A DNA stretch of 64,000 bases from a bacterium (GTDB lineage Bacteria; UBA8248), in contig OY843592.1 in assembly GCA_963692865.2 (NCBI GenBank), positions 3,877,599 to 3,941,598 of the forward strand, read 5' to 3'. The translations under genes were made by a program, and so were the position numbers. The notes beneath the pieces are model-generated. The model had not been told where the DNA came from. It made no database searches and worked only from the letters and a program-made list of their open reading frames with translations. Positions 11,727 through 35,253 of this stretch are shown piece after piece (position 1 is the first letter of the stretch; each line of letters opens with the position of its first letter).

Positions 11727-11781
11727 AATATAGGGGATGGGGGCCGTGAGCCATGACGCGCAAATGCGGGGAAATGCGCGG
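11727..11781 (-). promoter_or_regulatory. late-module promoter P1 (tandem box + 29 bp + TATATT)
   Basis: Minus strand CCGCGCATTTCCCCGCATTT-N29-TATATT upstream of terminase; same layout at 32929 and 35199. Confidence 0.75.
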
Positions 11782-11876
11782 TTTGCGGGGAACATCGTTT
11801 CTACCCCGCCGATGCGGGATGGTTTGCCGGGCGGCGGGAAAAAGGCGATCCTCCCGCATCAATCGGGCTTTCACCT

Positions 11877-11958
11877 GTAGGGGCCGCATATCATGCGGCC
11901 CGTTGCGGAGGCGAAAATCAGGGTCGCATGATATGTTGGACATATATGTCTGACCTAC
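11877..11958. repeat. GTAG...CTAC REP-like palindromic pair
   Basis: GTAGGGGCCGCATATCATGCGGCCC and GGACATATATGTC palindromes; inverted copies near 14008-14093 and 17475-17561. Confidence 0.75.
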
Positions 11959-12604
11959 AGAATCATCACGTCGCCGACCGGGCAGCGGAAGAACCACTCC
12001 CCGGTCGGTGAAATACGACGAATCACGAAATCAGGATTTTTTCACGACCCCGACCGGCAGACTGATGAGCGCATCCTTGCGCTCAGGCGCGCATCCGGGG
12101 TCTTTGAACCCGAAGCGCCCGGCGCGCTCTCGCCGCGCGGCGTTGATCGCGCCTCCGACTTCCTGTAAATCCGTCTTTGAAACAATGCCGAATGAAGGCA
12201 TGGTGTTCGCAAAGCTCCTCTGGAAACCGGGCGCACGCTACACACCCGGCGCTTCTGGTGGTATAGTAGGCGGCAGCTCATCCAACGCCCAGGATTGTTC
12301 TGGAGACGATTGGGGGGTTTCCCCCGCGAGGAATCCCTATTTTCCTTGACTGAACGGCTGGTTCCGACGCCTTCCGGGGCGCGAAACCATCTCAAGGAGA
12401 TTGGTGTATGCGTCGAATCACGACGAAAATCAAGTCCGAAGACGTCGAGAGAGCACGGGCCGGACGCGGTGGTGACGAGGAGATTCTCATCCACGCCACC
12501 CGGTGCGGCATCCAAACCGGCGGGCGGGCGAAGCCGCCGTCTAAAACCTGAACCAAAACCTTTTTTTCGATTCATTACCTGACGCATTTAGGGAGGTTGA
12601 AAAA

Positions 12605-13888
12605 ATGAAACGCTTTCTTTTGTTCCTTTGGGCCGCGGCGCTCGCCCTGGCCCCGGGGACCGCATTCGCGGCCGATAAGCTCGATACCGGGAACACCGCC
12701 TGGATACTGACGTCGACCGCCCTCGTCCTGTTCATGACGCTCCCGGGCCTCTCGCTCTTCTACGGCGGCCTCGTGCGCGCGAAGAACGTGCTCTCGGTGC
12801 TGATGCAGTGCTTCGCCATCGCCTGCGCGGTGTCGGTCGTCTGGCTCGTCGTCGGCTACAGCTTGGTGTTCGAGGCGGGCAACGCCTTCATCGGCGGGCT
12901 GGGCAAGGCGTTCTTCGCGGGCGTGGGCGTGGAATCGCTCTCGGGCAACATTCCCGAGACGGTCTTCGCCATGTTCCAGCTCACCTTCGCCATCATCACG
13001 CCCGCGCTGATCGTGGGCAGCTTCGCCGAGCGGATGCGCTTCTCGGCCCTGTTCATCTTCTCCATCGCGTGGGTGATCCTCGTCTACGCGCCGGTGGCCC
13101 ACTGGGTGTGGGGCGGCGGGTGGCTCGGCGCGATGGGCGCGCTCGATTTCGCGGGCGGCACCGTGGTGCACATCAACTCCGGCATAGCGGCCCTGGTGGC
13201 CGCCATCCTCATCGGCCCGAGGCACGGCTTTCCCACGACGGCCATGCTGCCCCATAACCTGCCCATGGCGGTGACGGGCGCGGGCATCCTGTGGGTCGGC
13301 TGGTTCGGCTTCAACGCGGGCAGCGCGCTGGCGGCAGACGGCGCGGCGGGCATGGCCATGCTCGTCACCCACATCTCCTCGGCGGCCGGCGCGCTCGCGT
13401 GGATGTTCGCCGAGTGGATCAAGCACGGCAAGGCGAGCGTGCTCGGCATCGTGACGGGCATGGTGGCGGGCCTGGTCGGCATCACGCCGGCTTCGGGCTT
13501 CGTGGGGCCGGTGGGCGCGCTGCTGCTCGGCGCGATAGCCGGCGTCGGCTGCTACGCCGCCACCAACTACATGAAGCAGGTGCTCAAGATAGACGACTCG
13601 CTCGACGTGTTCACCGTGCACGGCGTGGGCGGCATCATCGGCGCGATACTAACCGGCGTTTTCGTCGCCAAGGGGTTCGGCGGCGTCGGCTTCGCCGAGG
13701 GCGTCGGCATGGGCAAGCAGTTGTGGATCCAGTTCGTGAGCGTGGTCGCCACGCTCGTCTACTCGGGCGTCGTATCCTTCATCCTGTTCAAAATCGTGGA
13801 CGCCATCGTGGGCCTCAGGGCCGACGCCAACGAGGAATCCGGCGGCCTCGACCTCATGATGCACAACGAATCGGCCTACGAACGCTAG
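12605..13888 (+). CDS. amtB: ammonium transporter
   Basis: DFAGGTVVHINSG, WFGFNAGS, DDSLDVFTVHGVGG; signal peptide; GGGAGG SD. Confidence 0.97.
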   Translation: MKRFLLFLWAAALALAPGTAFAADKLDTGNTAWILTSTALVLFMTLPGLSLFYGGLVRAKNVLSVLMQCFAIACAVSVVWLVVGYSLVFEAGNAFIGGLGKAFFAGVGVESLSGNIPETVFAMFQLTFAIITPALIVGSFAERMRFSALFIFSIAWVILVYAPVAHWVWGGGWLGAMGALDFAGGTVVHINSGIAALVAAILIGPRHGFPTTAMLPHNLPMAVTGAGILWVGWFGFNAGSALAADGAAGMAMLVTHISSAAGALAWMFAEWIKHGKASVLGIVTGMVAGLVGITPASGFVGPVGALLLGAIAGVGCYAATNYMKQVLKIDDSLDVFTVHGVGGIIGAILTGVFVAKGFGGVGFAEGVGMGKQLWIQFVSVVATLVYSGVVSFILFKIVDAIVGLRADANEESGGLDLMMHNESAYER

Positions 13889-13898
13889 GCCGTACGCG

Positions 13899-13929
13899 AA
13901 AAGGCCCCGGGGCCGAGTCCCCGGGGCCG
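13899..13929. terminator. GC hairpin after amtB, between convergent transcription units
   Basis: AAAA-GGCCCCGGGG-ccgagt-CCCCGGGGCC; U-tract on minus strand. Confidence 0.55.
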
Positions 13930-13961
13930 CGCGTTCGCGTGAAAGGCGGCCTCTCCAATTC

Positions 13962-14152
13962 GGGGTTGTTGAAAAACTATCCCTCTCGCATCAACCACGT
14001 TTTACCCGTATGTCGGACATATATGTCCGACATATCATGCGACCCGGCCTTTTCGCCCTTCCGGTGGCGGGCCGCATGATATGCGGCCCCTACAAAAACC
14101 GCTCCCCCCCGGTCGCGTAAAACACTATTCATCAAGGCTTTTTCAACAACCC
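13962..14152. mobile_element. MITE-like element with GGGTTGTTGAAAAA terminal inverted repeats and REP cargo
   Basis: TIRs at both ends; interior nearly identical to 17427-17561. Confidence 0.75.
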
Positions 14153-15166
14153 TCAAGCCGTTCGCTTTTTTCCCACGTAGTCGAGCAGGACGGCCAGGAT
14201 GATGATCGCCCCCACCGCCAGCAGTTGCCAGTCGGCGGCTATCCCCAAGAGGTTCAGGCCGTTTCGGATGCACGCGATGATGAGCGTGCCGATGACGGTG
14301 CCGATGACGCGCCCCTCGCCGCCCAGCAGCGAGGCGCCGCCGATGACGACCGCGGCGATGACGTCCATCAAATCGAACATGCCCATGATGGCCTGGGCGG
14401 CCATGAGGCGCGAGGCCATCACCACGCCCGCCAGCGCGCCGCAGAAACCGCTGAAGACGAGCACGAACAGCTTGACGGCGAAGACGTTCACGCCGGCGAC
14501 GCGGGCGGCCTCCTTGTTGCCGCCGACGGCGTAGATGTTCGTGCCCAGGACGGTGCGCGAGAGGATGAGGTGCGCGATGAGAAAGACGACGCCCATGATG
14601 ACGGCGGCCATGGGAAACGGGCCGACGTAGCCCTGCCCGACGACGCTGAAGGCCTCGGGCAGGCCGAAGATGGACTGCTCGCCCGTCAGGATGAGCGCGC
14701 CGCCGCGCGCGAGGCTGTCCATCGCCAGCGTGAGGATGAAGGCGGGAATCGCGAACCAGCCCACGAAGACCCCGCTCACTCCGCCCAGCAAGACGCCGAG
14801 GATCAGGGTGGCGAGCACCGCGGGCACGATGGGCACCCCGTATTCCTTGAGCAGAAGCGCGACGACGACCGCACCCATCGACTGGATAGAGGCCACGGAC
14901 AAGTCGATCTCCGCGCAGATGATGACGAGCGTGAGGCCCGCCGCCATGATGCCGATGTTCGAGGACTGGAGCAGGATGTTCATCATGTTCGAGACGGTGA
15001 AGAAGTTCTCCGCCGTGATCGAGAGAAAGAGGATCAACAAGATGAGCGCGAGAATAAGGCCGTACCTGGAAAAGCCCGACGCGATGAGAGATGCGATATC
15101 GTATCCCCCGCTCGCTTCGGCGGCCGGGCCACGCCCGCTATCCATTTTTCCTTCGCCGCTCATCAT
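14153..15166 (-). CDS. sugar ABC transporter permease (RbsC-like)
   Basis: EIDLSV, YAVGGNKEAARVAGV, IAAVVIGGASLLGGEG. Confidence 0.92.
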   Translation of the reverse strand: MMSGEGKMDSGRGPAAEASGGYDIASLIASGFSRYGLILALILLILFLSITAENFFTVSNMMNILLQSSNIGIMAAGLTLVIICAEIDLSVASIQSMGAVVVALLLKEYGVPIVPAVLATLILGVLLGGVSGVFVGWFAIPAFILTLAMDSLARGGALILTGEQSIFGLPEAFSVVGQGYVGPFPMAAVIMGVVFLIAHLILSRTVLGTNIYAVGGNKEAARVAGVNVFAVKLFVLVFSGFCGALAGVVMASRLMAAQAIMGMFDLMDVIAAVVIGGASLLGGEGRVIGTVIGTLIIACIRNGLNLLGIAADWQLLAVGAIIILAVLLDYVGKKRTA

Positions 15167-15194
15167 TCCTCTCCCCGGCAGACACGTCTCTTAT

Positions 15195-15588
15195 GGGGTT
15201 GTTGCAAAAGCCCCCTTCGCCTCATCCTGAGTAGCGGCGAAACCGCGTATCGAAGGATGTCCTCTCGCCCCGGGGCAAGCGTTCGATTCCCCGCGCCCTT
15301 CGATACGCCGCCTCCGGCGGCTACTCAGGGTGAGGAAAGAGGCGTTGGCGGTTTGCGAGGGCCACAGACGAAGGTTATTCAACAACCCCCTATCGAGCAA
15401 GTTCGCCGGAATGACGAACAAAACCAAATTCGTCATCGACCCCGACAAAAGAGCGCCAACTACCGTAGGGACAGGCCTCTGTGCCTGTCCTGACGAAAGA
15501 CAACCATGGAGGGCTCGGACAGGCGTAAAGGCCTGTCCGCTACAAACCTTCTACTTGCAAGGCCCTTGCCGGGTTTTTCAACAACCCC
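15195..15588. mobile_element. composite MITE/REP repeat cluster
   Basis: GGGGTTGTTGCAAAA at 15195; TTCAACAACCCC ending 15389 and 15588; internal CATCCTGAGTAGC...GCTACTCAGG and GTAGGGACAGGC...CTAC palindromes. Confidence 0.7.
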
Positions 15589-15590
15589 TC

Positions 15591-17177
15591 TTACGCCGCC
15601 GTGCCCGTCGCGTAGCGCATGATGGTTTCCGCGTCTGCGTCTTTCCTTGAAACCTCGCCGGTGATGCGGCCCTCGTTCATCACGATGATGCGGCTGCAGA
15701 TCGCCGTGACCTCGGGCAGTTCGGAGGATATCACGATAATCGCCACCCCGAGCTGCGCGAGTTCCTCGAGGATGCGGTAAATCTCCACCTTGGCGCCCGC
15801 GTCGACGCCCTTGGTCGGCTCGTCGAGTATGACGATGCGAGCGCCCGTGGATATCCCCCGCGCGAGGAGCACCTTTTGCTGGTTCCCGCCGCTGAGCTGG
15901 GCGATCCGATCCGTCAGGGAGGCGACCTTGATGCTCAGCCTCTCCACGTAGTCGCGCGAGAGGCCATCCGCGCCCGAACCGTTGACCCAGCCCAGAAGGC
16001 GCGTGAGCCTTCGCGAGCGGCTCTCCCTGCCGAAGTTGAACAGGGTGATGAGCAGGTTCTCCAGCACCGATAAGAGCGGGAACACGCCCTGGTTCTTGCG
16101 GTCTTCGGTCAGAAAAGACAGCCCGTGGCGTATGGCGTCGCGGGGTTTCCTGATTCTCACCGACTCGCCGTCGATCAGCACCTCGCCGCCGTCCAGCCGA
16201 TCGAGACCGAACAGCGCGCGGAACAATTCCGTCCTTCCCGCTCCCACGAGTCCCGCGAAGCCGAGAATCTCGCCTCTTCTCACCTTGAAGCTCACGTCTG
16301 CGAACACGCCTGCCGTCGTGAAATTCCTGACTTCGAGAACCTCCTCGCCCATCTGGCCGCTGATCCTGGGGTAGCGCTCGCTGAAGGTGCGCCCCGTCAT
16401 CATGCGGATGAGGGCGTCGACGTCGGTGTCCGCGGCACCGATGGTCCCGACGTGGCGTCCGTCGCGCAGGACGGAGATGCGATCGCCGATCGCGAGGCAG
16501 TCCTCCAGCGTGTGGGAGACGTAGACGACCCCGATGCCGCGCGCCGTCAGGCGCTCGATGACCTCGAAGAGCGCTTCCTTCTCACCGGGACCCAGGGAAG
16601 AGGTGGGTTCGTCCATCAGGATGACTTTGGCGTCGAAGGCCACCGCCTTGGCGATCTCGAGAAACTGCATATCCGACAAACTCAGAGTCAACACCTCGGC
16701 GTTCGGGTCGACGTCTATCCTAAGTTCGGTGAAAATCTCGCGGCAGCGCCGCTCCATCGCCGCCACATCGCGCACGCCCAGACGCCCGAGCAGCCGGTTC
16801 GCGCTCCTCAAATCGCGGCCCAGGAAGAGATTGCTCTTCACGTCCATCAGCCGCACGAGGCTCAGTTCCTGGTGGATGACGCTGATTCCCAGTTCGCGCG
16901 TGAGGGCGGGCGAGCATCTCTCGATGACGCTGCCTTCGAACACCATCTCGCCGGTATCTTTTTCGACGACGCCCGAGATGATCTTGATCATGGTCGACTT
17001 GCCGGCCCCGTTCTCGCCCAGGAGGACGTGCACCTCGCCGGGGCGCACGCTGAAATCCACCCCGTCGAGCGCCACGACCCCCGGAAACGTCTTGCCGATG
17101 CCGCGCATGTCGAGGATCAAGCACTCCGAAGCGTCTTCCTGAGGGGATTCGGTTGGACGGGAGGGAGACGGCGTCAT
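15591..17177 (-). CDS. sugar ABC transporter ATP-binding protein (RbsA-like, two ABC domains)
   Basis: GENGAGKST, MDEPT, LSGGNQQKV, LDEPTKGVD. Confidence 0.93.
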   Translation of the reverse strand: MTPSPSRPTESPQEDASECLILDMRGIGKTFPGVVALDGVDFSVRPGEVHVLLGENGAGKSTMIKIISGVVEKDTGEMVFEGSVIERCSPALTRELGISVIHQELSLVRLMDVKSNLFLGRDLRSANRLLGRLGVRDVAAMERRCREIFTELRIDVDPNAEVLTLSLSDMQFLEIAKAVAFDAKVILMDEPTSSLGPGEKEALFEVIERLTARGIGVVYVSHTLEDCLAIGDRISVLRDGRHVGTIGAADTDVDALIRMMTGRTFSERYPRISGQMGEEVLEVRNFTTAGVFADVSFKVRRGEILGFAGLVGAGRTELFRALFGLDRLDGGEVLIDGESVRIRKPRDAIRHGLSFLTEDRKNQGVFPLLSVLENLLITLFNFGRESRSRRLTRLLGWVNGSGADGLSRDYVERLSIKVASLTDRIAQLSGGNQQKVLLARGISTGARIVILDEPTKGVDAGAKVEIYRILEELAQLGVAIIVISSELPEVTAICSRIIVMNEGRITGEVSRKDADAETIMRYATGTAA

Positions 17178-17426
17178 GGGCGAGTCTTCCAGTTGGAGGG
17201 TCGGGCCGTGCCGACGTGCGCCTCAAGGGTTGTTGAAAAAGCCTTATTCTCGTGATCCGGGGTATGGAGCCGACAGGGCAGGGAGTTCGACTCCGATTTG
17301 CAGGGATCGCATACATGCGACCCATGCGGATGAATCAAAACTACGCTCATCGGCAATCCCCCCGCCCGAATCGCGTCCATGACTCAAAAGGGGCAAATAT
17401 CAAATCACGAGTCGGGTCGCATGTAC

Positions 17427-17664
17427 GGGGCTGTTGAAAAAGCTATCCCTCTCGCATCAACCACGTTTTACCCGTAGGTCGGACATATATGTCCGACATA
17501 TTATGCGACCCGGCCTTTTTTCGCCTCTCCGGCGGCGGGCCGCATAATATGCGGCCCCTACACCGCCACTCGAACGACGCGTGTAAGAACAAACCCGAGG
17601 AGGGGCTGTCACTACGGAATCATCACGTCGCCGACCGGGGATATATGGACTTTTTCAACAACCC
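17427..17664. mobile_element. MITE-like element, same family as 13962-14152
   Basis: GGGGCTGTTGAAAAA...TTTTTCAACAACCC; an extra left TIR at 17227. Confidence 0.75.
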
Positions 17665-17794
17665 TATGTCTGCGACCCCTGCACCACTCCCTCGTTCTTT
17701 CCGGTCAACCGGGCGACCACGGGAGACTCCGGACAAGCCCCTGCGCCTGTCCAGCTACGCATCTCCCGCGTTTCGAATCGAACCCGTAGGGGCG

Positions 17795-19267
17795 CTTCTC
17801 TAATCGGGTAGGGCAAGTCAAGTTCCTCTCCCCTGGTTCTGTCAGACCTGTTCCGCCTTTGGCTGCAGATGACGCTCCATGGGGGTCTCGCTTCTCTTCG
17901 TGATCGACTCCCGAGCCGGGGGCCGTCAACAGGATGGGATCGGAGAACGAAGTGGAACAATCTTTCCTGCGCCCTCGCATCGTCACCGACGCAGCGGGGC
18001 TAGGCCGACAGCGTACTCACTTCGTCCCTCGTCCCCACGGGAGCATCCCCCGCCGAGGCGGAAGCTACAGGGTTTGTCTGTGGTCCTCCTTCTTCAGTGT
18101 CTCGACCTCAGGCAGCCGAAGCATCCGCGCCGTCGCGCTTCCAGCGGAACTCACTGCCATCCATCCACATGCGGTGCATGATGACGCCGAGCCGGCGGGC
18201 GAGCGCAACCTTCGCGCGCGACTTGCCGCGACGCTTCGCCACACCCATCGCCCAGGCTTTCAGCCATGACCACCGCGTCGTGCGCCCGAGCAAGACGTTG
18301 GCGGCTTCGTAGAGCGCCGCGCGCATCATCGCGTCGCCGCATTTGGAGATGCTTCCCGTGCGGTCGACCTCTCCGGATTGCCATTTGCGAGGCACAAGCC
18401 CGAAGTGCGCGCCCACCGAGCGCGAGCGCGCAAAACGCGATGGCACGTCGACGCTCGCCCGGAAGGTGAGCGCCGTCACCGGACCCACGCCGGGAACCGT
18501 CATCAGGCGCCGGCAGACCGGATCGGCTCGCGCCGCCTCCAGCATCATCCTGTGCAGCCGGACGTATTCCGCCAGCAGCGCAGAGCGAGCCCGCAGCATC
18601 GGCGCCACCAGGCGCGCCAACTCCGGGCGCTCCGCGACCAGACACCCTACACGCGCCTCCAAACCGCGACGGGTGACCTTGCCCATCTTCAGCCCGAAGT
18701 TGCGCAGCGTGCCCCGGATGTGGGCCTCGGCGTCGCACAACTGCTTCAGCATGAACCTGCGGTTGGCGAGGAGCATGCGTTTTTCCTGGCTCGACACCGT
18801 CTTCACGTGCACCGGGCGAATCAGGTTCGCGCGAACCAACTGGGCGATGCCGCGCGCGTCGTCGCGGTCGCTCTTGTTCACCGTCGCCGAGAGCACCGCC
18901 TTCAGTTGCCGCGTCTCGGCGCAAACCACCGGGAACCCGGCCTCGGCCAGACCGTCATGGAGCCACTGTGACAGCGGCCCCGCCTCCAGGCAGATGCGCG
19001 TTACGCCGAAGGCCAGTCCGGTGAAGAACGCCACGAGGGCCGCGGGTTCGCTCGCGACCTTCGCCTCCCGGACGATCCCGCCCTCCGCGTCCACCACGCA
19101 CACACTCGTCCACTCCAACGACACGTCGAGTCCTGCAAAGTAGTTCATGACTGCTCCTCCTGCGGGCGCGTAGAGACCGGACCATCCCGGCCTCGCCTCG
19201 AATCATAAGGCAGAGGAACATCCGCCACACGCGGTAGTTCGCAGACCAACCCGATTACCCCATCTTC
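17795..19267 (-). mobile_element. IS110-family (IS1111-type) insertion sequence
   Basis: Sub-terminal IRs TAATCGGGT (17801-17809) and ACCCGATTA (19249-19257); CTTC core at both ends; about 310-bp non-coding 3' arm with TTGACT near the right end. Confidence 0.8.
18108..19148 (-). CDS. IS110-family DEDD transposase/recombinase
   Basis: AGLDVS, CLEAG, KSDRDDA, VPGVGP, QSG motifs. Confidence 0.95.
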   Translation of the reverse strand: MNYFAGLDVSLEWTSVCVVDAEGGIVREAKVASEPAALVAFFTGLAFGVTRICLEAGPLSQWLHDGLAEAGFPVVCAETRQLKAVLSATVNKSDRDDARGIAQLVRANLIRPVHVKTVSSQEKRMLLANRRFMLKQLCDAEAHIRGTLRNFGLKMGKVTRRGLEARVGCLVAERPELARLVAPMLRARSALLAEYVRLHRMMLEAARADPVCRRLMTVPGVGPVTALTFRASVDVPSRFARSRSVGAHFGLVPRKWQSGEVDRTGSISKCGDAMMRAALYEAANVLLGRTTRWSWLKAWAMGVAKRRGKSRAKVALARRLGVIMHRMWMDGSEFRWKRDGADASAA

Positions 19268-19270
19268 CCT

Positions 19271-19497: not shown

Positions 19498-19537
19498 TCA
19501 TGTCGAGCGCAGAAAGCCGCGGGTCCCGCTCTCGCCG

Positions 19538-20743: not shown

Positions 20744-20824
20744 GTCATCCCCCTGGGCGAGCGGACGCGCGGGGAGAGCGGGGTTCGAATCCCCCCGCCT
20801 CCGCGCGGCGCCGCGTTTGAACTC

Positions 20825-26264: not shown

Positions 26265-28010
26265 CTACTTCGGCGGGATGATCGGCAAGAGCACGTGGGA
26301 GGGATGCTCGGGGCCGGTGTGGACCGTCACCTCGCCGCCGAACACCTCGGGCGGCCTGTCGGCAGGGTCGTCGTGCCGGAACGGCCCCACGCCCGAGAAT
26401 ACGGCGGGCATGTTGGGAAGCCCCCGGGTGACGCCGCCCGGATAGACGTAGTCGCACCCCCGGACGCTCAAGGCGATGCGGTAGCCTTTGGGAACCACGA
26501 TGCAGGTCGGCCAGATCTCCACGTCCAGCTCGTATATCTCGCCCGGGGTGAGCGGCTGAATCTCATCGTGCGCGTGGTAGGGCCGGTAGGGCAGCGTGAG
26601 AGCATCATCCAGCTTCCGGTGCGAGGCCCGGAGCCAGCCCTGGGCCACCGGGGTGTGGGGGTCGAGCGCGCCCTGGAAGGTGACTTCCCTGAAATCGGGC
26701 GTGAAGACTCTGAGGACGAGGAACAGGTCGGCGTCTTCGGTCTCGGAGGACACCCACAGCTTCGACGCCAGGGGGCCCGTGATCTCGGTTTCGCGCTTCA
26801 AGGGGGGCGAGACGAACGTCACCCCGTCGCTCAATCCGGCGTAGGTCGCCGAACCCGCCTCGGCGGGCGCGGCCGCGCCGAGCAGGTGGCCTTCCGTATG
26901 GAGATAGAGCTTCGTCCAGTTCGTGCGCGCGATGGGCCACTCGTTCTCCGCGCGCTCCACGAACTTCTCGCCGGGGTGGCGAATCTGAAGCAGGACCCTC
27001 GGTTGCTCCTTCCAGCCCGTATCCTCGCCCTTCAAGTAATGCCCGAAGAATTTCTTCTGGAGCGCGACGCCGTAATCGGTGTAAAACTCCGTCCAGTGCT
27101 CGATGCCGTGGCTCTCCAGCCATTTCTCTTCTGAAGCCGCGCGCATGAAGGCCTCGCAGTTGCCCCTCGGGTGAAGCCCCTGCCCGCCCCAGTTGTTGGA
27201 TGAGAGAAAGGGCACCTCGACTTTCGACCAGTCGGGGGTCTTGTTCTTCCAGTACTCATCATCGAGCGGGTGCGCGCGCATCTCCGCCCCCAGAGGACAG
27301 CGGTTGGCGCCCAGTTCCTCCTCGCTCAGCGTATCCGGCCCCGAGACCCAGTCGCCCGTCACCCGGCTCTTGTAGCCGCGTTCGCCCAGGCCGTGCTGTT
27401 TGGAGCGCCCCCTGTTCTGATACCAGTTCTCCGTGAACGTGCAGTAGATGCCCCCGTGGTAGTTCATGTCGCGGTAAAAATCCGCCGCCCCCTCCCAGGC
27501 GCACATGGCGACCAAGTGCGGGGGTTTCAGGCACGCGACCTGCCACTGGTTGATGGCGTAATAGGAGATGCCGTTCGCCCCCACCTTCCCGTTGCTCCAG
27601 GGCTGGACGCCCGCCCACTCGATGCACTCGTAGAAATCGCGCGTCTCGCGATCCGAGAAGGGGTCCATGTACCCCGGCGAGCGGCCGGCGCCCCTCGAAT
27701 CCACCCGCACGCAGGCGTAGCCGTCCGGCACCCATTTCTCGGGGTCCACGACCTCCCAGTTCTGGTATTTGTTCGAAGAGCCCGCGGCGACGTCGGGGTG
27801 TTGCTCCACCATGCGCCGCCACTGCTCCGGATAGCCGTCCTCGAAGTGGAGCCACTTCCCGTAAATCCCGTAGGTGATGATGACGGGATAGCGGCCCTCC
27901 TCTACGGGCCGGTAGACGTCGCAGCGCAGCACCAGGCCGTCGTCCATCTCGACCGGAACCTCCCAGTCGATCCGCATGCCGTCGGCAATTTCCGATTTAC
28001 GCCCTCTCAT
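26265..28010 (-). CDS. CocE/NonD family hydrolase, copy 1
   Basis: DSRGAGRSPG, GISYY nucleophile motif, PepX-like C-terminal domain. Confidence 0.92.
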   Translation of the reverse strand: MRGRKSEIADGMRIDWEVPVEMDDGLVLRCDVYRPVEEGRYPVIITYGIYGKWLHFEDGYPEQWRRMVEQHPDVAAGSSNKYQNWEVVDPEKWVPDGYACVRVDSRGAGRSPGYMDPFSDRETRDFYECIEWAGVQPWSNGKVGANGISYYAINQWQVACLKPPHLVAMCAWEGAADFYRDMNYHGGIYCTFTENWYQNRGRSKQHGLGERGYKSRVTGDWVSGPDTLSEEELGANRCPLGAEMRAHPLDDEYWKNKTPDWSKVEVPFLSSNNWGGQGLHPRGNCEAFMRAASEEKWLESHGIEHWTEFYTDYGVALQKKFFGHYLKGEDTGWKEQPRVLLQIRHPGEKFVERAENEWPIARTNWTKLYLHTEGHLLGAAAPAEAGSATYAGLSDGVTFVSPPLKRETEITGPLASKLWVSSETEDADLFLVLRVFTPDFREVTFQGALDPHTPVAQGWLRASHRKLDDALTLPYRPYHAHDEIQPLTPGEIYELDVEIWPTCIVVPKGYRIALSVRGCDYVYPGGVTRGLPNMPAVFSGVGPFRHDDPADRPPEVFGGEVTVHTGPEHPSHVLLPIIPPK

Positions 28011-28036
28011 CGCTCACCTCTCGTCTTCATCAGGAA

Positions 28037-29785
28037 TCATCCTTTCTGTGGTATCACCGGCAGCAATACGTGGGAGGGATGCGCCGGGCCGGTGTGGAGC
28101 GTCACCTTTCCGCCGAAGAGCTCCGTCGGCCTGTCCTCTTTCAGATCGTGCTTGAAGGGTCCCACCCCGTAGTAGACGCGGCCCGATATCTTTGGCGCCG
28201 TCGGCTCATAGCCCGGCCAGACGTAATCGCGCCCCCGGATGCTCAAGGCCAGGCGGTATTCTTTGGGGATCACGATGGAGGTCGGCCAAATCTCCACATC
28301 CAGTTCGTATATCTCGCCCGGCGTGAGCGGCTGCACCTCATCGTGCGCGTGGTAGGGCCTGTAGGGCAGCGTGAGGGACTCATCGAGCTTCCGGTGCGAA
28401 GCCCTCAGCCAGCCGATGGCGACGGGCGTGTGCGGGTCGTTCGCGCCCCGGTAGACGATCTCGGTCATGTCCGGCGTGAAAACGCGCAGGGTGAGGAACA
28501 GATCCGCGTCCTCGGTGTCCGAGGAGACGAACAGCTTGGCCGCCACGGGGCCGGTGATCTCGGTTTCCTCGGCGAAGGGCGGCGAGATGTAGATCAAGCC
28601 GTCGCCCAGGGCGTCATAGGTCTTCGTCCGCTCGTTGGTCTGGGGTTCGGGCCTGAAGGTTCCCGAGCCGGAATGGAGGTAATACTTCGTCCACTGCGTG
28701 CGCGCGATGGGCCACTCGCTCTCCGCGCGCGGCGCGAACTTCTCGCCGGGATGGCGCACGAGGAGCTGGACTCTCGGCTGCTCCGCCCAGCCGGTGTCCT
28801 CGCCTTTCAGGAAGTGGCCGAAGAATTTCTTCTGGAGCGCGACGCCGTAATCGGTGTAAAACTCCGTGAAATGCTCCAGCCCGTGCATCTCCAGCCATTT
28901 CTGGTCGGTGGCCGATTGCACGAAGCCCTCCGTGTTGCCCCTGGGGTGCAGGCCCACCCCGCCCCAGTTGCCCGCAGACAGGAGCGGCACGTTGATCTTC
29001 GAGTAATCGGGCATGCGAGCGCGCCAGTAATCATCCACCAGGGGATGATCGAGAATATCCTGGCCGAAATCGCTCCTGTTGGAAGCAAGTTCCTCTTCGC
29101 TCAGGTTGGCGGGGCCGGAAATCCAGTCGCCGTTGATGCGGCTCTTGATGCCGCGGTTTCCCTTGCCGTGCTGGCGGGGCACGACGGCCTGGCCGTACCA
29201 GGTGTCCGAGAAGCGGCAGGCGATGCCCCCGTGGTGGGCGAGGTCGCGGTAGAAATCGGCCGCCCCCTCCCAGACGCACATGGCCGCCAGGTGCGGCGGC
29301 TGGAGCGATGCCACCTGCCACTGGTTCATCCCGTAGTAGGAGATGCCGTTCAGCCCCACCTTCCCGTTGCTCCAGGGCTGCGCGCCCGCCCACTCGATGC
29401 AGTCGTAAAAATCCCTGGTCTCGCGCGGGGACCACACCTCCAGATAACCCGGCGAGCGGCCCGCGCCGCGCGAGTCCACCCGGACGCAGGCGTAGCCGTC
29501 CGGCACCCATTTCTCGGGGTCGACGAGCTCCCAGTTCTGGTATTTGTTGGTGGTGCCCATGACGGTCTCGGGGTAGTCGTTCACCATGAGGCTCCACTGG
29601 TGGGGATAGCCGTCCTGAAGATGAAGCCACTTGCAGTAGGGGCCGTAGCTCATGATGACGGGGTATTGGCCGTCCTCAATGGGCCGGTAGACGTCGCAGC
29701 GCAGCACCACGCCTTCGTCCATCTCGATGGGCGCGTCCCAGTCGACCCGCATCCCGTCCCTCACTTCGCTCTTGTACTCGCTCAT
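28037..29785 (-). CDS. CocE/NonD family hydrolase, copy 2
   Basis: Same motifs; close paralog of the adjacent gene. Confidence 0.92.
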   Translation of the reverse strand: MSEYKSEVRDGMRVDWDAPIEMDEGVVLRCDVYRPIEDGQYPVIMSYGPYCKWLHLQDGYPHQWSLMVNDYPETVMGTTNKYQNWELVDPEKWVPDGYACVRVDSRGAGRSPGYLEVWSPRETRDFYDCIEWAGAQPWSNGKVGLNGISYYGMNQWQVASLQPPHLAAMCVWEGAADFYRDLAHHGGIACRFSDTWYGQAVVPRQHGKGNRGIKSRINGDWISGPANLSEEELASNRSDFGQDILDHPLVDDYWRARMPDYSKINVPLLSAGNWGGVGLHPRGNTEGFVQSATDQKWLEMHGLEHFTEFYTDYGVALQKKFFGHFLKGEDTGWAEQPRVQLLVRHPGEKFAPRAESEWPIARTQWTKYYLHSGSGTFRPEPQTNERTKTYDALGDGLIYISPPFAEETEITGPVAAKLFVSSDTEDADLFLTLRVFTPDMTEIVYRGANDPHTPVAIGWLRASHRKLDESLTLPYRPYHAHDEVQPLTPGEIYELDVEIWPTSIVIPKEYRLALSIRGRDYVWPGYEPTAPKISGRVYYGVGPFKHDLKEDRPTELFGGKVTLHTGPAHPSHVLLPVIPQKG

Positions 29786-29942
29786 TTCTCGCCTTTCCGT
29801 GAAAATGGTGGATCACCGTCGGTGATGTATTTGGGGATGGGGGGAATATAACCGAGCGGAGATACGGCGTCCAGGGTTGGAGTGTGATTAGGGAAATGAT
29901 GCCTTGAGTCCTTCGGAATGAAGGGCTCGGGTGAGACGCTGA

Positions 29943-30182
29943 TTAATTTTCGTCGAAAAAACCTTCGGGCAGACCGAAAATGCGAATGATATCCTTTTGA
30001 TAACCCGGATAAATCGGGGTCTTCCCGCCATGATACGGTAGTGGGTAGTGGCGCTCTATGCCGTCAATATCAGGATGATAGAGCATCCGATGACTACCTT
30101 TGCCGCGTCTTGTGTGGACGCTGAACCTGGGATCAAATTCACGAAGGAGCTTCAAGAGTTGCCTGTACTCAATCGTTCGCAA
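29943..30182 (-). CDS. HicA-family toxin
   Basis: 79 aa, basic, RGKGSH motif. Confidence 0.8.
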   Translation of the reverse strand: MRTIEYRQLLKLLREFDPRFSVHTRRGKGSHRMLYHPDIDGIERHYPLPYHGGKTPIYPGYQKDIIRIFGLPEGFFDEN

Positions 30183-30185
30183 ACG

Positions 30186-30530
30186 CTAAACCTCTGCGAA
30201 TTTTTGCGGATCCACCTTGGGCAAGGGAAGGTCACAAGAGAAAATGTCCGGAAGGCTTTGCGGGGGTCTCGATTTGAGATGACGTTTCACGCTATCGCGC
30301 TTCACCGACTCATAGAGCGCGTGATAGGAGGGCTCGGCTGGGACGAAAATCTCATCCAGGGTGTCGTTTTGCACGGCGAACGACATCTGCGCCTCGACCG
30401 CCTCGGTGAGATTTTCCACCGCCTGATCTTGCGTTTCACCGTAGCCCCTGAGGCTCATATCCAGCGCAATCGCGCACCACGTCCCGTCTTCACGGACCAC
30501 CAGAACGCGCAGGGTATGGTTGAAATCCAT
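30186..30530 (-). CDS. HicB-like antitoxin
   Basis: EDGTWCAIALDMSLRGYGETQDQAVENLTEA; directly upstream of hicA. Confidence 0.75.
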   Translation of the reverse strand: MDFNHTLRVLVVREDGTWCAIALDMSLRGYGETQDQAVENLTEAVEAQMSFAVQNDTLDEIFVPAEPSYHALYESVKRDSVKRHLKSRPPQSLPDIFSCDLPLPKVDPQKFAEV

Positions 30531-30652
30531 GGGCGCGTGAACTCCTTTTTTATTCGTCAGTCTGTGGTGACAGCTAAATAGCCTACATGGTTTCGCAGGC
30601 TTTTGCACTACGCGCTATTTTAACAACTCACTCACCTGCTATCTCCCCCCCA

Positions 30653-30862
30653 TCACTTGGTCCGCTCCTCGAGCTTGCGCGTCGCCTCCTCGACGATCTC
30701 GCACACCCTGTCCATCAGGTCGGGGTGCGCGCGGAACGACTCGCGCACCTCCTTGACGATCGCCATCTCGGCGGCGGCGAAGACGTCCTCGTACTCCAGC
30801 TTGAGCTTCTCGGCCGATATGCGGCTGCGCTCCAGCCCGTTCACCATCTGCGCGAGTTTCTC
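30653..30862 (-). pseudogene. duplicated 3' fragment of the DUF3486/gp27-like gene
   Basis: 30661-30862 nearly identical to 31810-32011; no 5' part. Confidence 0.85.
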
Positions 30863-30938
30863 CGGCTTGTAGAGGAGTTTGAGTTAAAGAGATTTCTCTA
30901 GAAAATGCGGACTTCTTAGGATTGGAAACGGTCGAGGC

Positions 30939-31193
30939 TCAATAGGCTTCCGGCAATTCATTCTTCGCGCAGTCTTTGTCGATATGCAGATGACGAATCA
31001 TCTTTCTGATATGACCAATCTCGATCTCCGCCCGACGTCCCCTTCCATGCTCTCACTTCGGGAATGCCGGATAGGTTCTGCCCCCATATCGGATGCAGTA
31101 GTGATGCGTGGTTTCCCTGATGTCGCATCCGGGCGCGCAAGCCTCAAGCATTTCCCATATTTTCCTTAGTCGTACGCGCCCGCTTGAAGTCAT
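30939..31193 (-). pseudogene. HicA-like toxin interrupted by an in-frame TGA
   Basis: ATG abuts upstream stop (TGAATG); MTSSGRVRLRKIWEML...YPAFPK*EHG...IGHIRKMIRHL; TGA at 31053-31055. Confidence 0.6.
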
Positions 31194-31658
31194 TCAGGCG
31201 GCGACGGCCCTGGGTTCATCCAGCATGTTGCGCCGCGCCGTGGGTTTCTTAATGGCTCTCACCTGCACATAAGGCTGGTGCTCGTCTGCGTTTTTCTTTT
31301 CCATCCTTTCGGCTTCGATATCTCCCCGGCGCACAGCCTCAACGGCTTCATCCCATTCCCGTTTCGTTTCTTCGCAGATTTCGTTGAAGAAAGCCTCCAC
31401 TCGCCCTTTGAAGGTCGAAAAATCTTCGGCTTCTTCCGCCATGTCGAACAGGACGGACGTGTAGGTCCGCCGAAAAGTGGAGAATGCCTCATCCTCGTTT
31501 TGTCCGGTCGCGGCGATCCCACCCGGCTGTACGCCGTACATCCAAGTGGAATCATCCTCTTTCATCCCGAGGACCGTTCCCGTCATTCTTACGTCCGCCA
31601 CGAAGCCGTTCCCTTCCACCTTGTCCGAGAAGGTAAAAAAGAACGGAAACGCGCTCAT
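31194..31658 (-). CDS. HicB-like putative antitoxin
   Basis: WMYGVQPGGIAATGQNEDEAFSTF HicB-like segment; AAGGAG SD. Confidence 0.6.
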   Translation of the reverse strand: MSAFPFFFTFSDKVEGNGFVADVRMTGTVLGMKEDDSTWMYGVQPGGIAATGQNEDEAFSTFRRTYTSVLFDMAEEAEDFSTFKGRVEAFFNEICEETKREWDEAVEAVRRGDIEAERMEKKNADEHQPYVQVRAIKKPTARRNMLDEPRAVAA

Positions 31659-31801
31659 GTCACTCTCCTTCTGGATTAGTGAATTGGTTTGAGAAGCATC
31701 TCACACACCCATACCCTATCTCATAAATCGCAATGTTTCGCCATATCTTGCCATACATTCCAACCATTTCAACCAGCCCGAAACCAGCCTCATCCTCCGC
31801 G

Positions 31802-32374
31802 TTACTCAATCCGCTCCTCGAGCTTGCGCGTCGCCTCCTCGACGATTTCGCACACCCTGTCCATCAGGTCGGGATGCGCGCGGAACGACTCGCGCACCTC
31901 CTTGACGATCGCCATCTTGGCGGCGGCGAAGACGTCCTCGTACTCCAGCTTGAGCTTCTCGGCCGATATGCGGCTGCGCTCCAGCCCGTTCACCATCTGC
32001 GCGAGTTTCTCGGGCGTGAGGTTTTCAAAGGATTCCTTCCCCATCCGCGAGACGGCCTCGACCGCCTGGGTCATCAGCATCCGCCTGGCGGCCGCCGCCA
32101 CCTTCTCGCCGGGGTCCCTGCCCTCGCCGTCATAGGCCATGACTTCCTCGATCAGCTCGTCCACCATGGCTTCCACCCGCCTGGTCTTGCGGATGCCCTC
32201 GAGCAGGCGATTGTTGCGCAAGCCCACCGAGCGTAGTCCTATCTTCTCGCCCGTGGCCTCCTCGAAGGCCTCGGCCACCTCCCTGTAGGTCTTCCCCTCG
32301 GCGAGCATCGGGTCGACGACTTTCTCGGCGCCGTATTCCTCGATTTTCGACCTGCGCCCCCGCCTCCTCTCCAT
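31802..32374 (-). CDS. Mu gp27-like (DUF3486) protein, putative small terminase
   Basis: N-terminal RGRRSKIE followed by HTH-like TYREVA; helical C-terminus; coupled to gp26-like gene. Confidence 0.7.
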   Translation of the reverse strand: MERRRGRRSKIEEYGAEKVVDPMLAEGKTYREVAEAFEEATGEKIGLRSVGLRNNRLLEGIRKTRRVEAMVDELIEEVMAYDGEGRDPGEKVAAAARRMLMTQAVEAVSRMGKESFENLTPEKLAQMVNGLERSRISAEKLKLEYEDVFAAAKMAIVKEVRESFRAHPDLMDRVCEIVEEATRKLEERIE

Positions 32375-32928: not shown

Positions 32929-32983
32929 AACATACAACGCGGCGCGGGTTCGGGCGGCACGGGAAATGCGGGGAAATGCGCGG
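32929..32983 (-). promoter_or_regulatory. late-module promoter P2 (tandem box + 29 bp + TATGTT)
   Basis: Box 32964-32983 identical (20/20) to 11762-11781; same spacing to the -10. Confidence 0.75.
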
Positions 32984-33663: not shown

Positions 33664-33687
33664 TACTCGCTTGGAATCGACCACCGC

Positions 33688-33825
33688 CGTCATTCCGGCG
33701 AAAGCCGGAATCCATTTGCGGGTGCGGGTGAACGACCGGCGGCATTTCATTCCCCGCAGATGTGCGGGAACCATGACGAAAGGCAAAAGGCGTAAAAATG
33801 GATTCCGGCTTTCGCCGGAATGACG
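33688..33825. repeat. inverted pair of the CGTCATTCCGGCGAAAGCCGGAATCCA palindromic repeat
   Basis: Perfect inverted copies at both ends. Confidence 0.85.
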
Positions 33826-33939
33826 ATCAAAATCGAACCGCCTCGAAAGGACAGGTCGCGACCTGTCCCTACCACCCCCTCCTCGGTTGTTTGCATTCTC
33901 CAAATCGCTCCCTTTTCGGTCGCTATTGCCCCCAAGCCC

Positions 33940-34365
33940 TCACCGCGCCTTTCCCTTGAGTTTCTCGACGGTGCGGAGCGCGCCCAGACCCAGCATCCCC
34001 AGCGTGAGTTCCATCAACCCGTCCGCCGAGACGGGATAGGGCGCGAGCTCGCCGCTCATCAGCACCTGCCGCGTCCAGAGCCATGCCCCGAGCGCGAACT
34101 GCGGGATGAAATAGAAGGCGAGCGAGACGCCGCAGGTCCACAGGATGAACGGCCTGCCGCCTGCGACGAAGGCGCTCCGGTGGGCGGCCTCTATCCTGTT
34201 GATCTCGTTCTGGGCCTCAAAGGGCCGCATCATCAGCTTCTGTTTTATCGCCTCCGCCGCGCGCCGCTCGTCCGGCGTCTCGACGAACTTGTCGATGACG
34301 TTGGCGACCCCCTCCGCCGCCGTGAGGACGCCGCCTCCGATGAGCTTTTCCAAAAAGGCCATCAC
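33940..34365 (-). CDS. 3TM holin (GTA_holin_3TM-like)
   Basis: EAAHRSAFVAGGRPFILW and LGMLGLGALRTVEK motifs; coupled to lysozyme (ATGA-type overlap). Confidence 0.85.
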   Translation of the reverse strand: MMAFLEKLIGGGVLTAAEGVANVIDKFVETPDERRAAEAIKQKLMMRPFEAQNEINRIEAAHRSAFVAGGRPFILWTCGVSLAFYFIPQFALGAWLWTRQVLMSGELAPYPVSADGLMELTLGMLGLGALRTVEKLKGKAR

Positions 34366-34775
34366 GCGCTCCTCATGCGCTCGGCGACCCGGCCCGCCCG
34401 CGCGGGGAGTTCCCTCGCGTAAATTGAATCGAGCGCCTCATCGGCGGCGAGCGCGTAATCGCCCCCGGCGAGCGCGGCCCACATCTTCCGAAACCCCAGA
34501 AGGCGCGGCACGCCCATGTTGTAGGCCATGTTCATGACCGCGCGCCTGGCGCCCGGCTTGAGACCCCTGCAGGTCCCGCCGACGGGGGAGCGCTCCAGTT
34601 CTTCGGCCATCAGGCCGAGGCGGTGGCGAAGCAGCAGTTCGGCTTCGGCCTCGGATATGCCGTCTTCGAGCAGCGTCCCGTAGCCGATGGTCTTCTTGCC
34701 CTTGTTATCCAGATACACTACCGGCACGAAACCCTCCTCGCGCTTGATCTCCTCTACGAGTTCGTCGGTGAGCAC
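34362..34775 (-). CDS. phage lysozyme/endolysin (T4-like, GH24)
   Basis: EEG..VYLD..G.KTIGYG catalytic E/D/T triad; NMAYNMGV..L.GFRKM. Confidence 0.88.
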   Translation of the reverse strand: MLTDELVEEIKREEGFVPVVYLDNKGKKTIGYGTLLEDGISEAEAELLLRHRLGLMAEELERSPVGGTCRGLKPGARRAVMNMAYNMGVPRLLGFRKMWAALAGGDYALAADEALDSIYARELPARAGRVAERMRSA

Positions 34776-34993
34776 CCCGCGCCCTCCTCTTCAAGCAGAT
34801 CCCCGATATCTTCCGCCTCTCTCAACAGACGCAGGAGCGCCGCAGCGCCCCTGCGCGCCCCCGCGCGGCGCGCGTAGGTCCGGCTCGACGCCGGCGCCCG
34901 TCCGTTCCTCGCCCGGACGCGGAAGCGATGCCGCCCGGATCCGTCCGTGAAGGTCTCGACCGGGCGATGTTTCGACCTCTTCACGGCCCGCAT
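34754..34993 (-). CDS. YegP/DUF1508-like small basic protein
   Basis: ETFTDGSGRHRFRVRARNGR..ASSRTY..RAGARRG pattern; overlaps neighbours at both ends. Confidence 0.55.
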   Translation of the reverse strand: MRAVKRSKHRPVETFTDGSGRHRFRVRARNGRAPASSRTYARRAGARRGAAALLRLLREAEDIGDLLEEEGAGCSPTNS

Positions 34994-35130
34994 ACGAGCA
35001 CCCCCAGGAAAAAGCCCGAAAGCGCGAGCGCCGCGCCCGCGGCAATTAGACGCAAGGCGGTGTGCTTCCTGTTCGCCCAGCGCCACAAGGCGGCGTCCGT
35101 TCTTCGTTCGAATTCGTTTTTTTCGCTCAT
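34981..35130 (-). CDS. 49-aa single-TM protein, first gene of the lysis cassette
   Basis: GAGGAG SD; MSEKNEFERRTDAALWRWANRKHTALRLIAAGAALALSGFFLGVLVCGP; below ORF-track cut-off. Confidence 0.6.
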   Translation of the reverse strand: MSEKNEFERRTDAALWRWANRKHTALRLIAAGAALALSGFFLGVLVCGP

Positions 35131-35198
35131 GGTTCTCCTCCCTCATCATCGGTGGAATCCCGCGCGCAGCCGGTGGGCCGCGCGCCTTGACGGGAGAG

Positions 35199-35253
35199 AT
35201 TCTACGTCTTGCCGGCGCGCGTCCGATGACGGAAAATGCGGGCAACTGCGCGG
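35199..35253 (-). promoter_or_regulatory. late-module promoter P3 (tandem box + 29 bp + TAGAAT)
   Basis: Box 35234-35253 matches 18/20; a third repeat AGATGCG follows in phase; same spacing. Confidence 0.7.

Follow-up and report, generated by a model that had tools for sequence, protein, structure and literature searches.

Gene transfer agents (GTAs) have, to our knowledge, been found in few lineages, and for no more than two or three of these is it understood how their genes are regulated. In the case of the GTA of Rhodobacter capsulatus (RcGTA) and its activator GafA (with CtrA), phage-derived head, tail, packaging and lysis genes are kept by the host over several chromosomal loci and are co-activated via promoter-bound host-encoded factors. 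GafA binds both the RcGTA and the gafA promoters, and the head-spike, tail-fibre and lysis loci are separate (PMC9638019). A comparable arrangement is described in the following for a 64,000-nt stretch of DNA (the window; G000:C1:3877599-3941598, where G000 is a 4.15-Mb assembly of 8 contigs with a completeness of 97% and a contamination/redundancy figure of 6.7%). It involves a 20-nt box, a direct repeat of the heptamer CGCATTT, which lies 29 nt upstream of a -10-like hexamer in front of several phage-derived operons and for which a shared switch is proposed here from sequence alone.

Other known promoter elements resemble the box in one respect or another. The sites of the Mor and C activators of phage Mu are dyad-symmetric and lie upstream of, and overlap, the -35 region. 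Direct repeats with a period of 10-11 bp that are read head-to-tail at promoters without a -35 include the boxes of the PhoB/OmpR type, the TTGC-N6-TTGC site of lambda cII and the heptamers of the Streptomyces antibiotic regulatory proteins (SARPs); these sites overlap or replace the -35. UP elements are A/T-rich, have a relaxed specificity, are general to strong promoters and are found at about -40 to -60, also at rRNA promoters. Our preferred reading, held with moderate confidence, is that the box, at about -58 to -42, is bound in tandem by an activator and co-ordinates a GTA-like element, and that a mobile intergenic repeat subsequently multiplied the promoter.

Box promoters and their conservation

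Within the window the box and its hexamer were located at three positions, named P1 to P3:

11762-11781, minus strand: P1 box, CCGCGCATTTCCCCGCATTT (CCG followed by CGCATTT-CCC-CGCATTT), exact match
11727-11732, minus strand: P1 -10-like hexamer TATATT, 29 nt past the box
32964-32983, minus strand: P2 box, exact copy of the P1 box
32929-32934, minus strand: P2 -10-like hexamer TATGTT, 29 nt past the box
35234-35253, minus strand: P3 box, CCGCGCAGTTGCCCGCATTT (CGCAGTT-GCC-CGCATTT), 2 mismatches
35199-35204, minus strand: P3 -10-like hexamer TAGAAT, 29 nt past the box

This common layout of three minus-strand boxes, each followed by 29 nt and a TAnnnT hexamer, had been proposed in an earlier, sequence-only reading of the window and was recovered in all its parts: the direct repeat with a 10-bp period (CGCAWTT pairs peak at 10 bp genome-wide as well), the 29-bp spacers of unlike sequence, the lack of a TTGACA-like -35 (the hexamers read directly at 16-18 bp spacing, TCATGG, GCCGCC and CATCGG for P1 to P3, match TTGACA at no more than 2 of 6 positions) and the lack of a further full copy in the window, where a search with up to 3 mismatches returned the boxes of P1, P2 and P3 only. 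Dinucleotide shuffles of the window (n=100) gave zero box matches. The identity between P1 and P2 is confined to the 20-nt box, and because flanks and spacers differ, their likeness does not stem from a segmental duplication. About 60 nt 3' of the P3 hexamer, GGAGGAG is found, followed by an ATG.

It had also been predicted that further matches would precede phage structural genes, and this was borne out by three promoters outside the window:

C1:3874446, minus strand: P4, exact box, 29 nt, TAGATT; 3.1 kb before the window start
C1:1640450: P5, box, 29 nt, TATATT; 2.2 Mb away
C1:1635268: P6, box with 2 mismatches, 29 nt, TACACT; 2.2 Mb away

P4 precedes a gene for a 693-aa fusion of prohead protease and major capsid protein (Pfam Phage_capsid_4, 1.2e-46; NCBIfam scaf_prot_MCP2, 4.6e-57, below the model cut-off; Pfam Mu-like_gpT, a weak match with E 6.3e-6 in which no single stretch passed alone), past which lie neck/tail-completion (phrog_5) and minor-tail (phrog_290) genes. 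The products behind P5 and P6 are tentatively tail-like: P5 precedes a 368-aa protein, the orthologues of which match phrog_8610, and then open reading frames (ORFs) of 177 and 403 aa; P6 precedes a 561-aa protein with a tape-measure likeness below cut-off (RcGTA_tape 3.3e-8, phrog_1535 1.2e-5).

The promoters were then compared with those of related loci, including 22 other species genomes of the genus. P1 recurs as box, 29 nt and TATATT in 16 of 20 loci (box exact in 12, with 1 mismatch in 3 and with 3 mismatches in 1), the hexamer being invariant in these 16 though the spacer sequence varies; it is missing from L044-L047, which are more distant loci or short contigs. P2 was found in 17 of the 21 small-terminase loci (TATATT, TATGTT or TATACT at 29 nt); G001, G007 and G019, in which the small-terminase gene closely follows the lysis genes, lack it, and G015 has only a 3-mismatch box, farther upstream. 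P3 is present with TAGAAT, TAAACT, TAGGAT or TAGATT at 29 nt in 18 of 19 holin loci, the exception being without upstream DNA, and P4 is kept in 20 of 21 loci, the contig of the exception ending 200 bp upstream of the gene. P5 is kept in 21 of 21 loci (15 at 29 nt, 6 at 28 nt). In the footprints of P1 to P5 the spacer sequence drifts and the spacer length stays at 28-29 bp. Judged from these footprints and from the spacing across the genome described below, the combination of box, 29-nt spacer and -10 is a genuine, selected promoter architecture of the genus.

The number of boxes (at most 1 mismatch) amounts to 36-105 in 18 genus-mates, to 0-4 in G009, G010, G015 and G019 and to 0-3 in 18 of 18 genomes outside the genus, with 0-1 in the controls. 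In G009 the boxes are not above control and the phage-derived genes are missing too. Three of the four box matches in G015 are the promoters of the P4, P1 and P5 orthologues, and three of the eight in G019 are P4, P5 and P3, the other five having no -10 at 29 nt; these two genomes were chosen for their low box counts and are given as a description, not a test. We read the phage-derived set as the conserved core of the box promoters. Farther away, the terminase promoter of two distant loci that carry Tectomicrobia in their titles has TACATT with an A/T tract ending 29 nt upstream and no double box. In one sister genus (G024) CGATCCT-N3-CGAATCT was found by eye at 29 nt from TACATT, upstream of the winged-helix gene described below, and in another (G023) there are 16 matches of a CGAATTT-type box variant versus 0 in the control. 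These variants suggest that a reader of the box co-evolves with it.

As a promoter type, the layout resembles that of the Mor- and C-dependent Mu promoters, the analogy drawn in the sequence-only reading, in having a good -10 (TATATT, TATGTT, TAGAAT), no usable -35 and an upstream site common to several operons. That part of the analogy stands; the remainder does not, as the site is a direct repeat and not a dyad, the element is not a contiguous phage and the activators themselves are lacking: Mor (PF08765) proteins number 0 in the whole of G000, with none among the 53 window ORFs scanned, and the zinc-finger activators of the Ogr/Delta family (PF04606), which distinguish the late promoters of phages P2/P4, likewise number 0 in the whole genome. 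With the PhoB/OmpR, cII and SARP sites the box has in common that a short direct repeat stands at a promoter without a -35; unlike those sites, it ends 29 bp before the -10, about 6 bp short of the place of a -35.

The box across the genome and its mobile repeat

The 17-nt core of the box (CGCATTT-N-CCCGCATTT) occurs 106 times in G000 at up to 2 mismatches (34 exact), compared with 2 times for the reversed control. When the overlapping registers of three-unit arrays are merged, 98 non-overlapping sites are obtained, 66 of which are distinct in downstream sequence. Seven of the 98 are on the small contigs C4, C5 and C8, and because six of these look like near-duplicates of C1 loci the real number is slightly lower. 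The three contigs are near-exact repeats of C1 loci, including a second tRNA-Sec on C4, which fits the 6.7% redundancy. A motif that seemed phage-specific in a 64-kb window proved to be genome-wide, which calls for caution with such windows.

The geometry of the sites is strict. Same-strand CGCAWTT pairs have a spacing of 10 bp in 65 cases and of 20 bp in 13, and no other spacing up to 60 bp occurs more than 3 times. The pattern nAnnnT is found at offset 29 in 60 of the 98 sites and at offset 28 in 10, the remaining offsets between 15 and 44 giving 0-7, mostly 0-4; the 66 distinct sites give 30 and 10, respectively. Among the hexamers, which are sigma70-like, CAGAAT occurs 14 times, TATCGT 9 times and TATGGT 6 times; CAGGAT, GAGAAT, TATATT and others are seen as well. 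A hexamer accompanies 58 of the 90 sites with a position weight matrix (PWM) score of at least 22, as against 7 of the 86 sites with a score of 12-22, so that the association is limited to near-perfect boxes. The G/C positions of the heptamer (C, G, C) are invariant at 63-66 of the 66 distinct sites and equal the A/T positions in this respect.

With respect to location, 86 of the 98 sites are intergenic (according to a crude gene call based on third-codon-position G+C that covered 70% of the genome). Past an intergenic site, the next gene is encoded on the opposite strand in 54 cases and on the same strand in 32, an excess that fits short non-coding units. Known RNAs adjoining the boxes were not found with Rfam at gathering threshold (20 loci) or ARAGORN (30 loci), and no box lies within 400 bp upstream of the 51 tRNA (50) and tmRNA (1) genes. 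The single rRNA operon (16S at C1:510897-512447) has a promoter in which a 2-mismatch box is followed by 5 nt, TTGACA, 18 nt and TAATCT, in total 29 nt from box to hexamer, and the box can thereby be placed in register with a canonical promoter. At the same position in 21 genus-mates there is a variable, A/T-phased sequence that is box-like in about 12 of them and is not conserved as a box. As a generic housekeeping promoter element the box was down-weighted, with only about 130-155 sites above the PWM thresholds genome-wide and none upstream of a tRNA gene. A literature search, supplements being outside its scope, found no published description of the box or the element.

Most copies are repeat-borne: at 70 of the 98 sites the 415 bp that follow the hexamer are found at least twice more in the genome, and at 49 an AT-rich core containing ATAAATT motifs lies no more than 700 bp downstream. 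In a ten-copy family the box and TATCGT are followed by a hairpin-forming leader, a variable stretch, the AT-rich core and a second box. Seven aligned composite copies consist of convergent box promoters, of the TATGGT and the CAGAAT type, about 230-390 bp apart around an AT-rich core of about 55 bp, so that the box is inverted at both ends. Examples are:

G000:C1:1266042-1266286: composite repeat
G000:C1:1369020-1369339: composite repeat
G000:C1:1539181-1539424: composite repeat

The composite repeat has no Rfam family, and ORFs inside it have no family match. A comparison of 23 genomes showed that some genus-mates have the copy upstream of tal and others do not, and the repeat is insertion-polymorphic in this sense; the apparent 374-aa transaldolase ORF of G000 is tal, with a product of about 220 aa, plus preceding translated repeat. 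The 70 repeat-borne copies are MITE-like (after miniature inverted-repeat transposable elements) in being multi-copy, non-coding and insertion-polymorphic. Sites with unique downstream sequence and a good hexamer at 29 nt are P1, P3, P4, P5, P6, the rRNA site and few others. Our reading is that most G000 copies probably represent a later amplification of the promoter cassette on this mobile repeat.

Further genes downstream of boxes, at 9-990 bp, are host genes: SCO1/SenC, TauE, acyl-CoA dehydrogenase, catalase-peroxidase, cytochrome c', a molybdoenzyme, GNAT, NAD kinase, pyruvate carboxylase, a GntR regulator, MnmA, a DEAD helicase, TctC and an integrase. The sequence-only reading had stated that it would fall if the motif were a common genome-wide repeat unlinked to phage genes. 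This applies in part, with 98 sites of which 70 are in repeats and others at host genes and the rRNA operon.

The phage-derived genes and their inheritance

The three operons in the window and the block between two of them are composed as follows:

10618-11676, minus strand: ATPase part of the large terminase, 352-aa ORF (Pfam GpA_ATPase 6.6e-16; phrog_675 7.8e-48)
9974-11719, minus strand: second frame, open throughout (frame analysis)
8604-9977, minus strand: portal protein, 457 aa (phrog_10963 3.7e-46)
7782-8491, minus strand: two small ORFs closing the P1 operon, 72 aa and 163 aa
32374-32706, minus strand: winged-helix protein, 110 aa, first gene past P2 (AlphaFold and Foldseek)
31802-32374, minus strand: small-terminase-like protein (Mu gp27-like), 190 aa (phrog_426 9.9e-10)
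34981-35130, minus strand: 49-aa ORF with a hydrophobic C-terminal half, first gene past P3
34362-34775, minus strand: endolysin, 137 aa (Pfam Phage_lysozyme 3.8e-10; phrog_7 1.3e-18)
33940-34365, minus strand: holin, 141 aa (Pfam GTA_holin_3TM 1.6e-11; phrog_3427 1.3e-23)
12605-31700: host-type block between the P1 and P2 operons (Pfam)

The frame of the ATPase part runs out at 10620. The 3' part of the second terminase frame, for which Pfam, PHROGs and NCBIfam gave no family match, presumably encodes the remainder of the terminase. An overlapping pair of ORFs of 352 and 334 aa is also present in L031 and L041, and the distant relative L046 has two separate ORFs; the two frames could reflect a programmed frameshift or a split terminase. 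The 163-aa ORF at the end of the P1 operon matches phrog_21691 (unknown function, 4.4e-18), the small-terminase-like protein also matches Pfam Phage_Mu_Gp27 (2.8e-5, below cut-off), and the 49-aa ORF gave no NCBIfam family in the NCBIfam scan, the only one applied to it. The 110-aa protein, modelled by AlphaFold with a predicted local distance difference test (pLDDT) value of 89.7, has its best Foldseek matches among TubR, PadR and MarR folds; it is 81-95% identical in 20 of 21 small-terminase loci and its gene is also found in 2 sister genera. A 181-aa ORF upstream of P1 was rejected as a gene, since it is not conserved in L031 and has a low Atlas recognition; it is probably no gene.

Some 20 kb of cellular genes (HicAB, two S15 peptidases, a periplasmic binding protein, an M24 peptidase, an IS110 transposase, an ABC transporter and an ammonium transporter) separate the P2 operon from P1, and the operons of P1 to P3 are for that reason not one contiguous prophage. 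Between portal and capsid there are another 12 kb of host genes. The order capsid, portal/terminase, small terminase and holin, with host genes interleaved, recurs in other complete genomes as judged from coordinates (G020: capsid 426-428 kb, portal/terminase about 438 kb, small terminase 457 kb, holin 459 kb; G019: capsid 2784, portal/terminase 2772-2775, small terminase 2760 and holin 2758 kb), and in L031 the ammonium transporter is likewise the upstream neighbour of P1.

The genes themselves are widespread in the genus. Homologues of the portal that are 78-93% identical were found in 20 loci of other genomes, which are metagenome-assembled genomes labelled as Nitrospinota, Nitrospinaceae or Candidatus Tectomicrobia. 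The capsid fusion, the small terminase and the P5 protein are each present in 20 of the 22 genus-mates and the holin (81-94% identical) in 18. These four are single-copy, and the best match per genome has no internal stops; the match of the P5 protein is split in two pieces in 3 genomes. All four are missing in G009 and G010, and in G010 the locus L095 retains a P1-like promoter followed by only a 26-residue remnant of the portal C-terminus, which looks like an element in the process of being lost. The ratio of nonsynonymous to synonymous substitution rates (dN/dS) versus several relatives was 0.17-0.25 for the capsid, 0.13-0.25 for the portal, 0.12-0.21 for the holin, 0.08-0.43 for the small terminase and 0.23-0.36 for the P5 protein (0.07-0.43 overall), at dS values of 0.23-1.08 that are comparable to those of the host gene tal (dS 0.42-0.66, dN/dS 0.08-0.18). 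The nearest capsid among 50,697 phage records has 33% identity. No integrase, Mu-type transposase, repressor or replication gene was found beside the modules among the adjacent ORFs, to which the scan was confined.

Distribution, synteny, dN/dS and the remoteness of the nearest phage capsid together fit vertical inheritance of a phage derivative of the GTA kind that is maintained by the host. Two traits of GTAs are recognized: head, packaging, tail and lysis genes occur without replication or integration modules in the ORFs scanned and are not excisable as a unit, and vertical inheritance goes together with purifying selection across the host clade (18-20 of 22 genus-mates). The phage-derived genes would then be a vertically inherited, domesticated, GTA-like set. 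What the sequence-only reading called phage modules are not those of a prophage: they are dispersed over host-interleaved loci, two operons are 2.2 Mb off and the set appears to be inherited vertically.

The set resembles RcGTA in the spread of head, tail, packaging and lysis genes over several loci, and its holin matches Pfam GTA_holin_3TM. It differs from it in several ways: structural-gene homology was not found (NCBIfam, 32 ORFs) except for RcGTA_tape at 33.5 bits, the cut-off being 220; its terminase belongs to the lambda gpA type, and its capsid protein is fused to a protease; its cis element, a sharply defined direct repeat, keeps a constant 29 bp to the -10; and the host belongs to an uncultured Nitrospinota/Tectomicrobia-related group, not to the Alphaproteobacteria.

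The surroundings of the three operons contain some other features. In the host block, an IS110-family transposase is located at 18108-19148 (minus strand) and tandem paralogous genes for S15 X-Pro dipeptidyl-peptidases (581 and 582 aa) at 26265-29785 (minus strand). A low-GC stretch (49% G+C, 4-6 kb) with an ORF containing a GIY-YIG nuclease domain lies at 3877-5834 (minus strand). Upstream of P3 there is a defence-like island (37293-44738, plus strand) with an N6/N4 DNA methylase, a 702-aa AAA_21/DUF4435 ATPase and a Fic/DOC protein, and further a weak SLATT-like ORF (36004-36540) and a 468-aa protein with Schlafen AlbA_2 and HATPase_c_4 domains. Between the lysis genes and P2 (33500-33900) palindromic repeats resembling repetitive extragenic palindromes (REP) are found in two types, one consisting of a C-run, TGACAAG and a G-run, which recurs beside many box repeats, and the other translating as 'IPAKAGIH'.

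Candidate readers of the box

In the mechanism that we propose, transcription would start about 7 nt past the hexamer. The heptamers would then span about -58/-52 and -48/-42 and share a face of the helix, just upstream of a -35 position at which no -35 is present. A sequence-specific protein encoded by the host genome would bind both heptamers in tandem and recruit RNA polymerase, as a class-I-like activator. The core of the regulon would comprise six operons with a box each: small membrane ORF and lysis genes (P3), winged-helix protein and small terminase (P2), large terminase and portal (P1), capsid, neck and tail (P4) and the tail-like products (P5 and P6). In most species of the genus, G000 included, the cassette would in addition have been multiplied on the insertion-polymorphic intergenic repeat. 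We infer the starts at the boxes, a dedicated protein and not RNA polymerase itself as the reader, and the production of particles. The sharp specificity, the invariant G/C positions, the direct-repeat geometry and the altered boxes of sister genera favour a dedicated activator, as do the requirement that holin and endolysin stay silent and the fact that tRNA and tmRNA genes have no box. The sequence-only reading, which postulated a head-to-tail activator, would have been right in spirit, in that one upstream site appears to co-ordinate all particle-gene operons.

Several observations weigh against an activator-driven particle regulon. The regulon of G000 is for the most part not phage-like, because 70 of the 98 sites are in repeats and others are at ordinary host genes, such as those for the GntR regulator, cytochrome c', the DEAD helicase and TctC. 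The assignment of the P5 and P6 products as tail-like is weak, and the model of the 368-aa P5 protein (pLDDT 47.6) is too poor for a fold search. Divergent from P5 (C1:1640944-1643970, which is L120:13945-16971, plus strand) a 498-aa M23-peptidase/endolysin-like protein is encoded (phrog_6700, 4.8e-31), together with two more ORFs, of which the first, 169 aa long, matches PHROG families; the peptidase gene has no box on its own strand within 3 mismatches, and since these divergent genes have none, not every phage-like gene uses the box. No box-binding protein was found in G000. Of the module proteins, only the 110-aa winged-helix protein has a DNA-binding fold, and its distribution is not that of the box: it was rejected as the sole reader as it is absent from G001 (36 boxes; P3, P4 and P5 promoters), including its small-terminase locus L182, and present in G024, which has 0 boxes at up to 1 mismatch. 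It may serve packaging instead. Finally, the box is at the position of an UP element, and in the rRNA promoter, too, a box-like sequence stands 29 nt from the hexamer.

This last point leads to the explanation that competes best with a dedicated activator, namely that the box is a lineage-specific, high-affinity UP-like element. In this view RNA polymerase would contact its two phased ATTT tracts (about -45/-42 and -55/-52) through the two alpha C-terminal domains. The box would be a portable, -35-independent cassette, and phage operons and repeats alike would use a strong generic promoter, with lysis controlled elsewhere. Like an UP element the box is found at about -40 to -60 (relative to the inferred +1), with two subsites one helical turn apart that match the UP subsites at their consensus positions. 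The 2-mismatch box at 29 nt from TAATCT in the rRNA promoter, the box-like A/T-phased sequences at that promoter in about 12 of 21 genus-mates, the A/T tract at 29 nt from TACATT in the two distant loci, the missing activator gene and the many unrelated promoters that carry the box all agree with it. Unlike in UP elements, with their relaxed A/T preference, G/C is as invariant in the heptamers as A/T, and specificity is sharp, slightly weaker boxes losing the association with a -10. Furthermore, 50 tRNA genes and the tmRNA gene are without the box, the rRNA copy is not conserved as such, constitutive transcription of holin and endolysin would be lethal, and the motif is genus-restricted, few or no copies being present in 4 of 22 genus-mates and in all 18 genomes outside the genus. 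On balance we consider an UP-like element rather unlikely.

The abundance of repeat-borne copies raises another explanation, in which the box is a structural part of the mobile repeat, for instance a terminal site for a transposase or repeat-processing protein, and owes its promoter-like appearance and its position at phage genes to insertions. The shared downstream sequence at 70 of 98 sites, the ATAAATT core at 49, the inverted boxes at both ends of the composite copies, the variable presence of the copy upstream of tal and box counts that vary from 0 to 105 among genus-mates speak for it. It does not account for the unique sequence downstream of P1, P3, P4, P5 and P6, or for module promoters that occupy the orthologous place in about 20 species, including species nearly free of other boxes; the strict 29 bp to nAnnnT is a feature of transcription and not of transposition, and a transposase linked to the repeat was not found. 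We regard this explanation as quite improbable.

A single inducible Mu-like prophage encoding its own Mor/C- or Ogr-type late activator, which would agree with the Mu-like order of lysis, gp27-like, large terminase and portal genes, with the weak matches to Mu gp27 (Pfam, below cut-off) and Mu-like_gpT and with the good -10 and poor -35, is very improbable and already contradicted by the host genes between small and large terminase (20 kb) and between portal and capsid (12 kb), an arrangement conserved in other species, by the two operons 2.2 Mb off, by the zero Mor and Ogr/Delta members of the genome, by the absence of integrase, Mu-type transposase, repressor and replication genes from the adjacent ORFs scanned, by the co-divergence of the genes with the host at low dN/dS and by a site that is a direct repeat.

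Returning to the tandem-binding activator, the broadest form of our proposal is a tentative one: an independently evolved GTA-like system may exist in an uncultured Nitrospinota/Tectomicrobia-related family, with at least six dispersed operons under one direct-repeat box at 29 bp, the cassette of which was copied about 70 times on a mobile repeat, where convergent promoters flank an AT-rich core. The cis code of such a system can be read from sequence as one box, one spacing and six operons, and it is conserved over about 20 species of the group. The box offers a handle for finding the regulator and a way to recognize all parts of a dispersed element, and the repeat offers a natural example of a promoter cassette that is spread by a mobile repeat. 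If the proposal is true, induction of the particle genes would fire short transcripts chromosome-wide, and these could mark or prime DNA for packaging, or the repeat could act as a parasitic 'satellite' of the activator.

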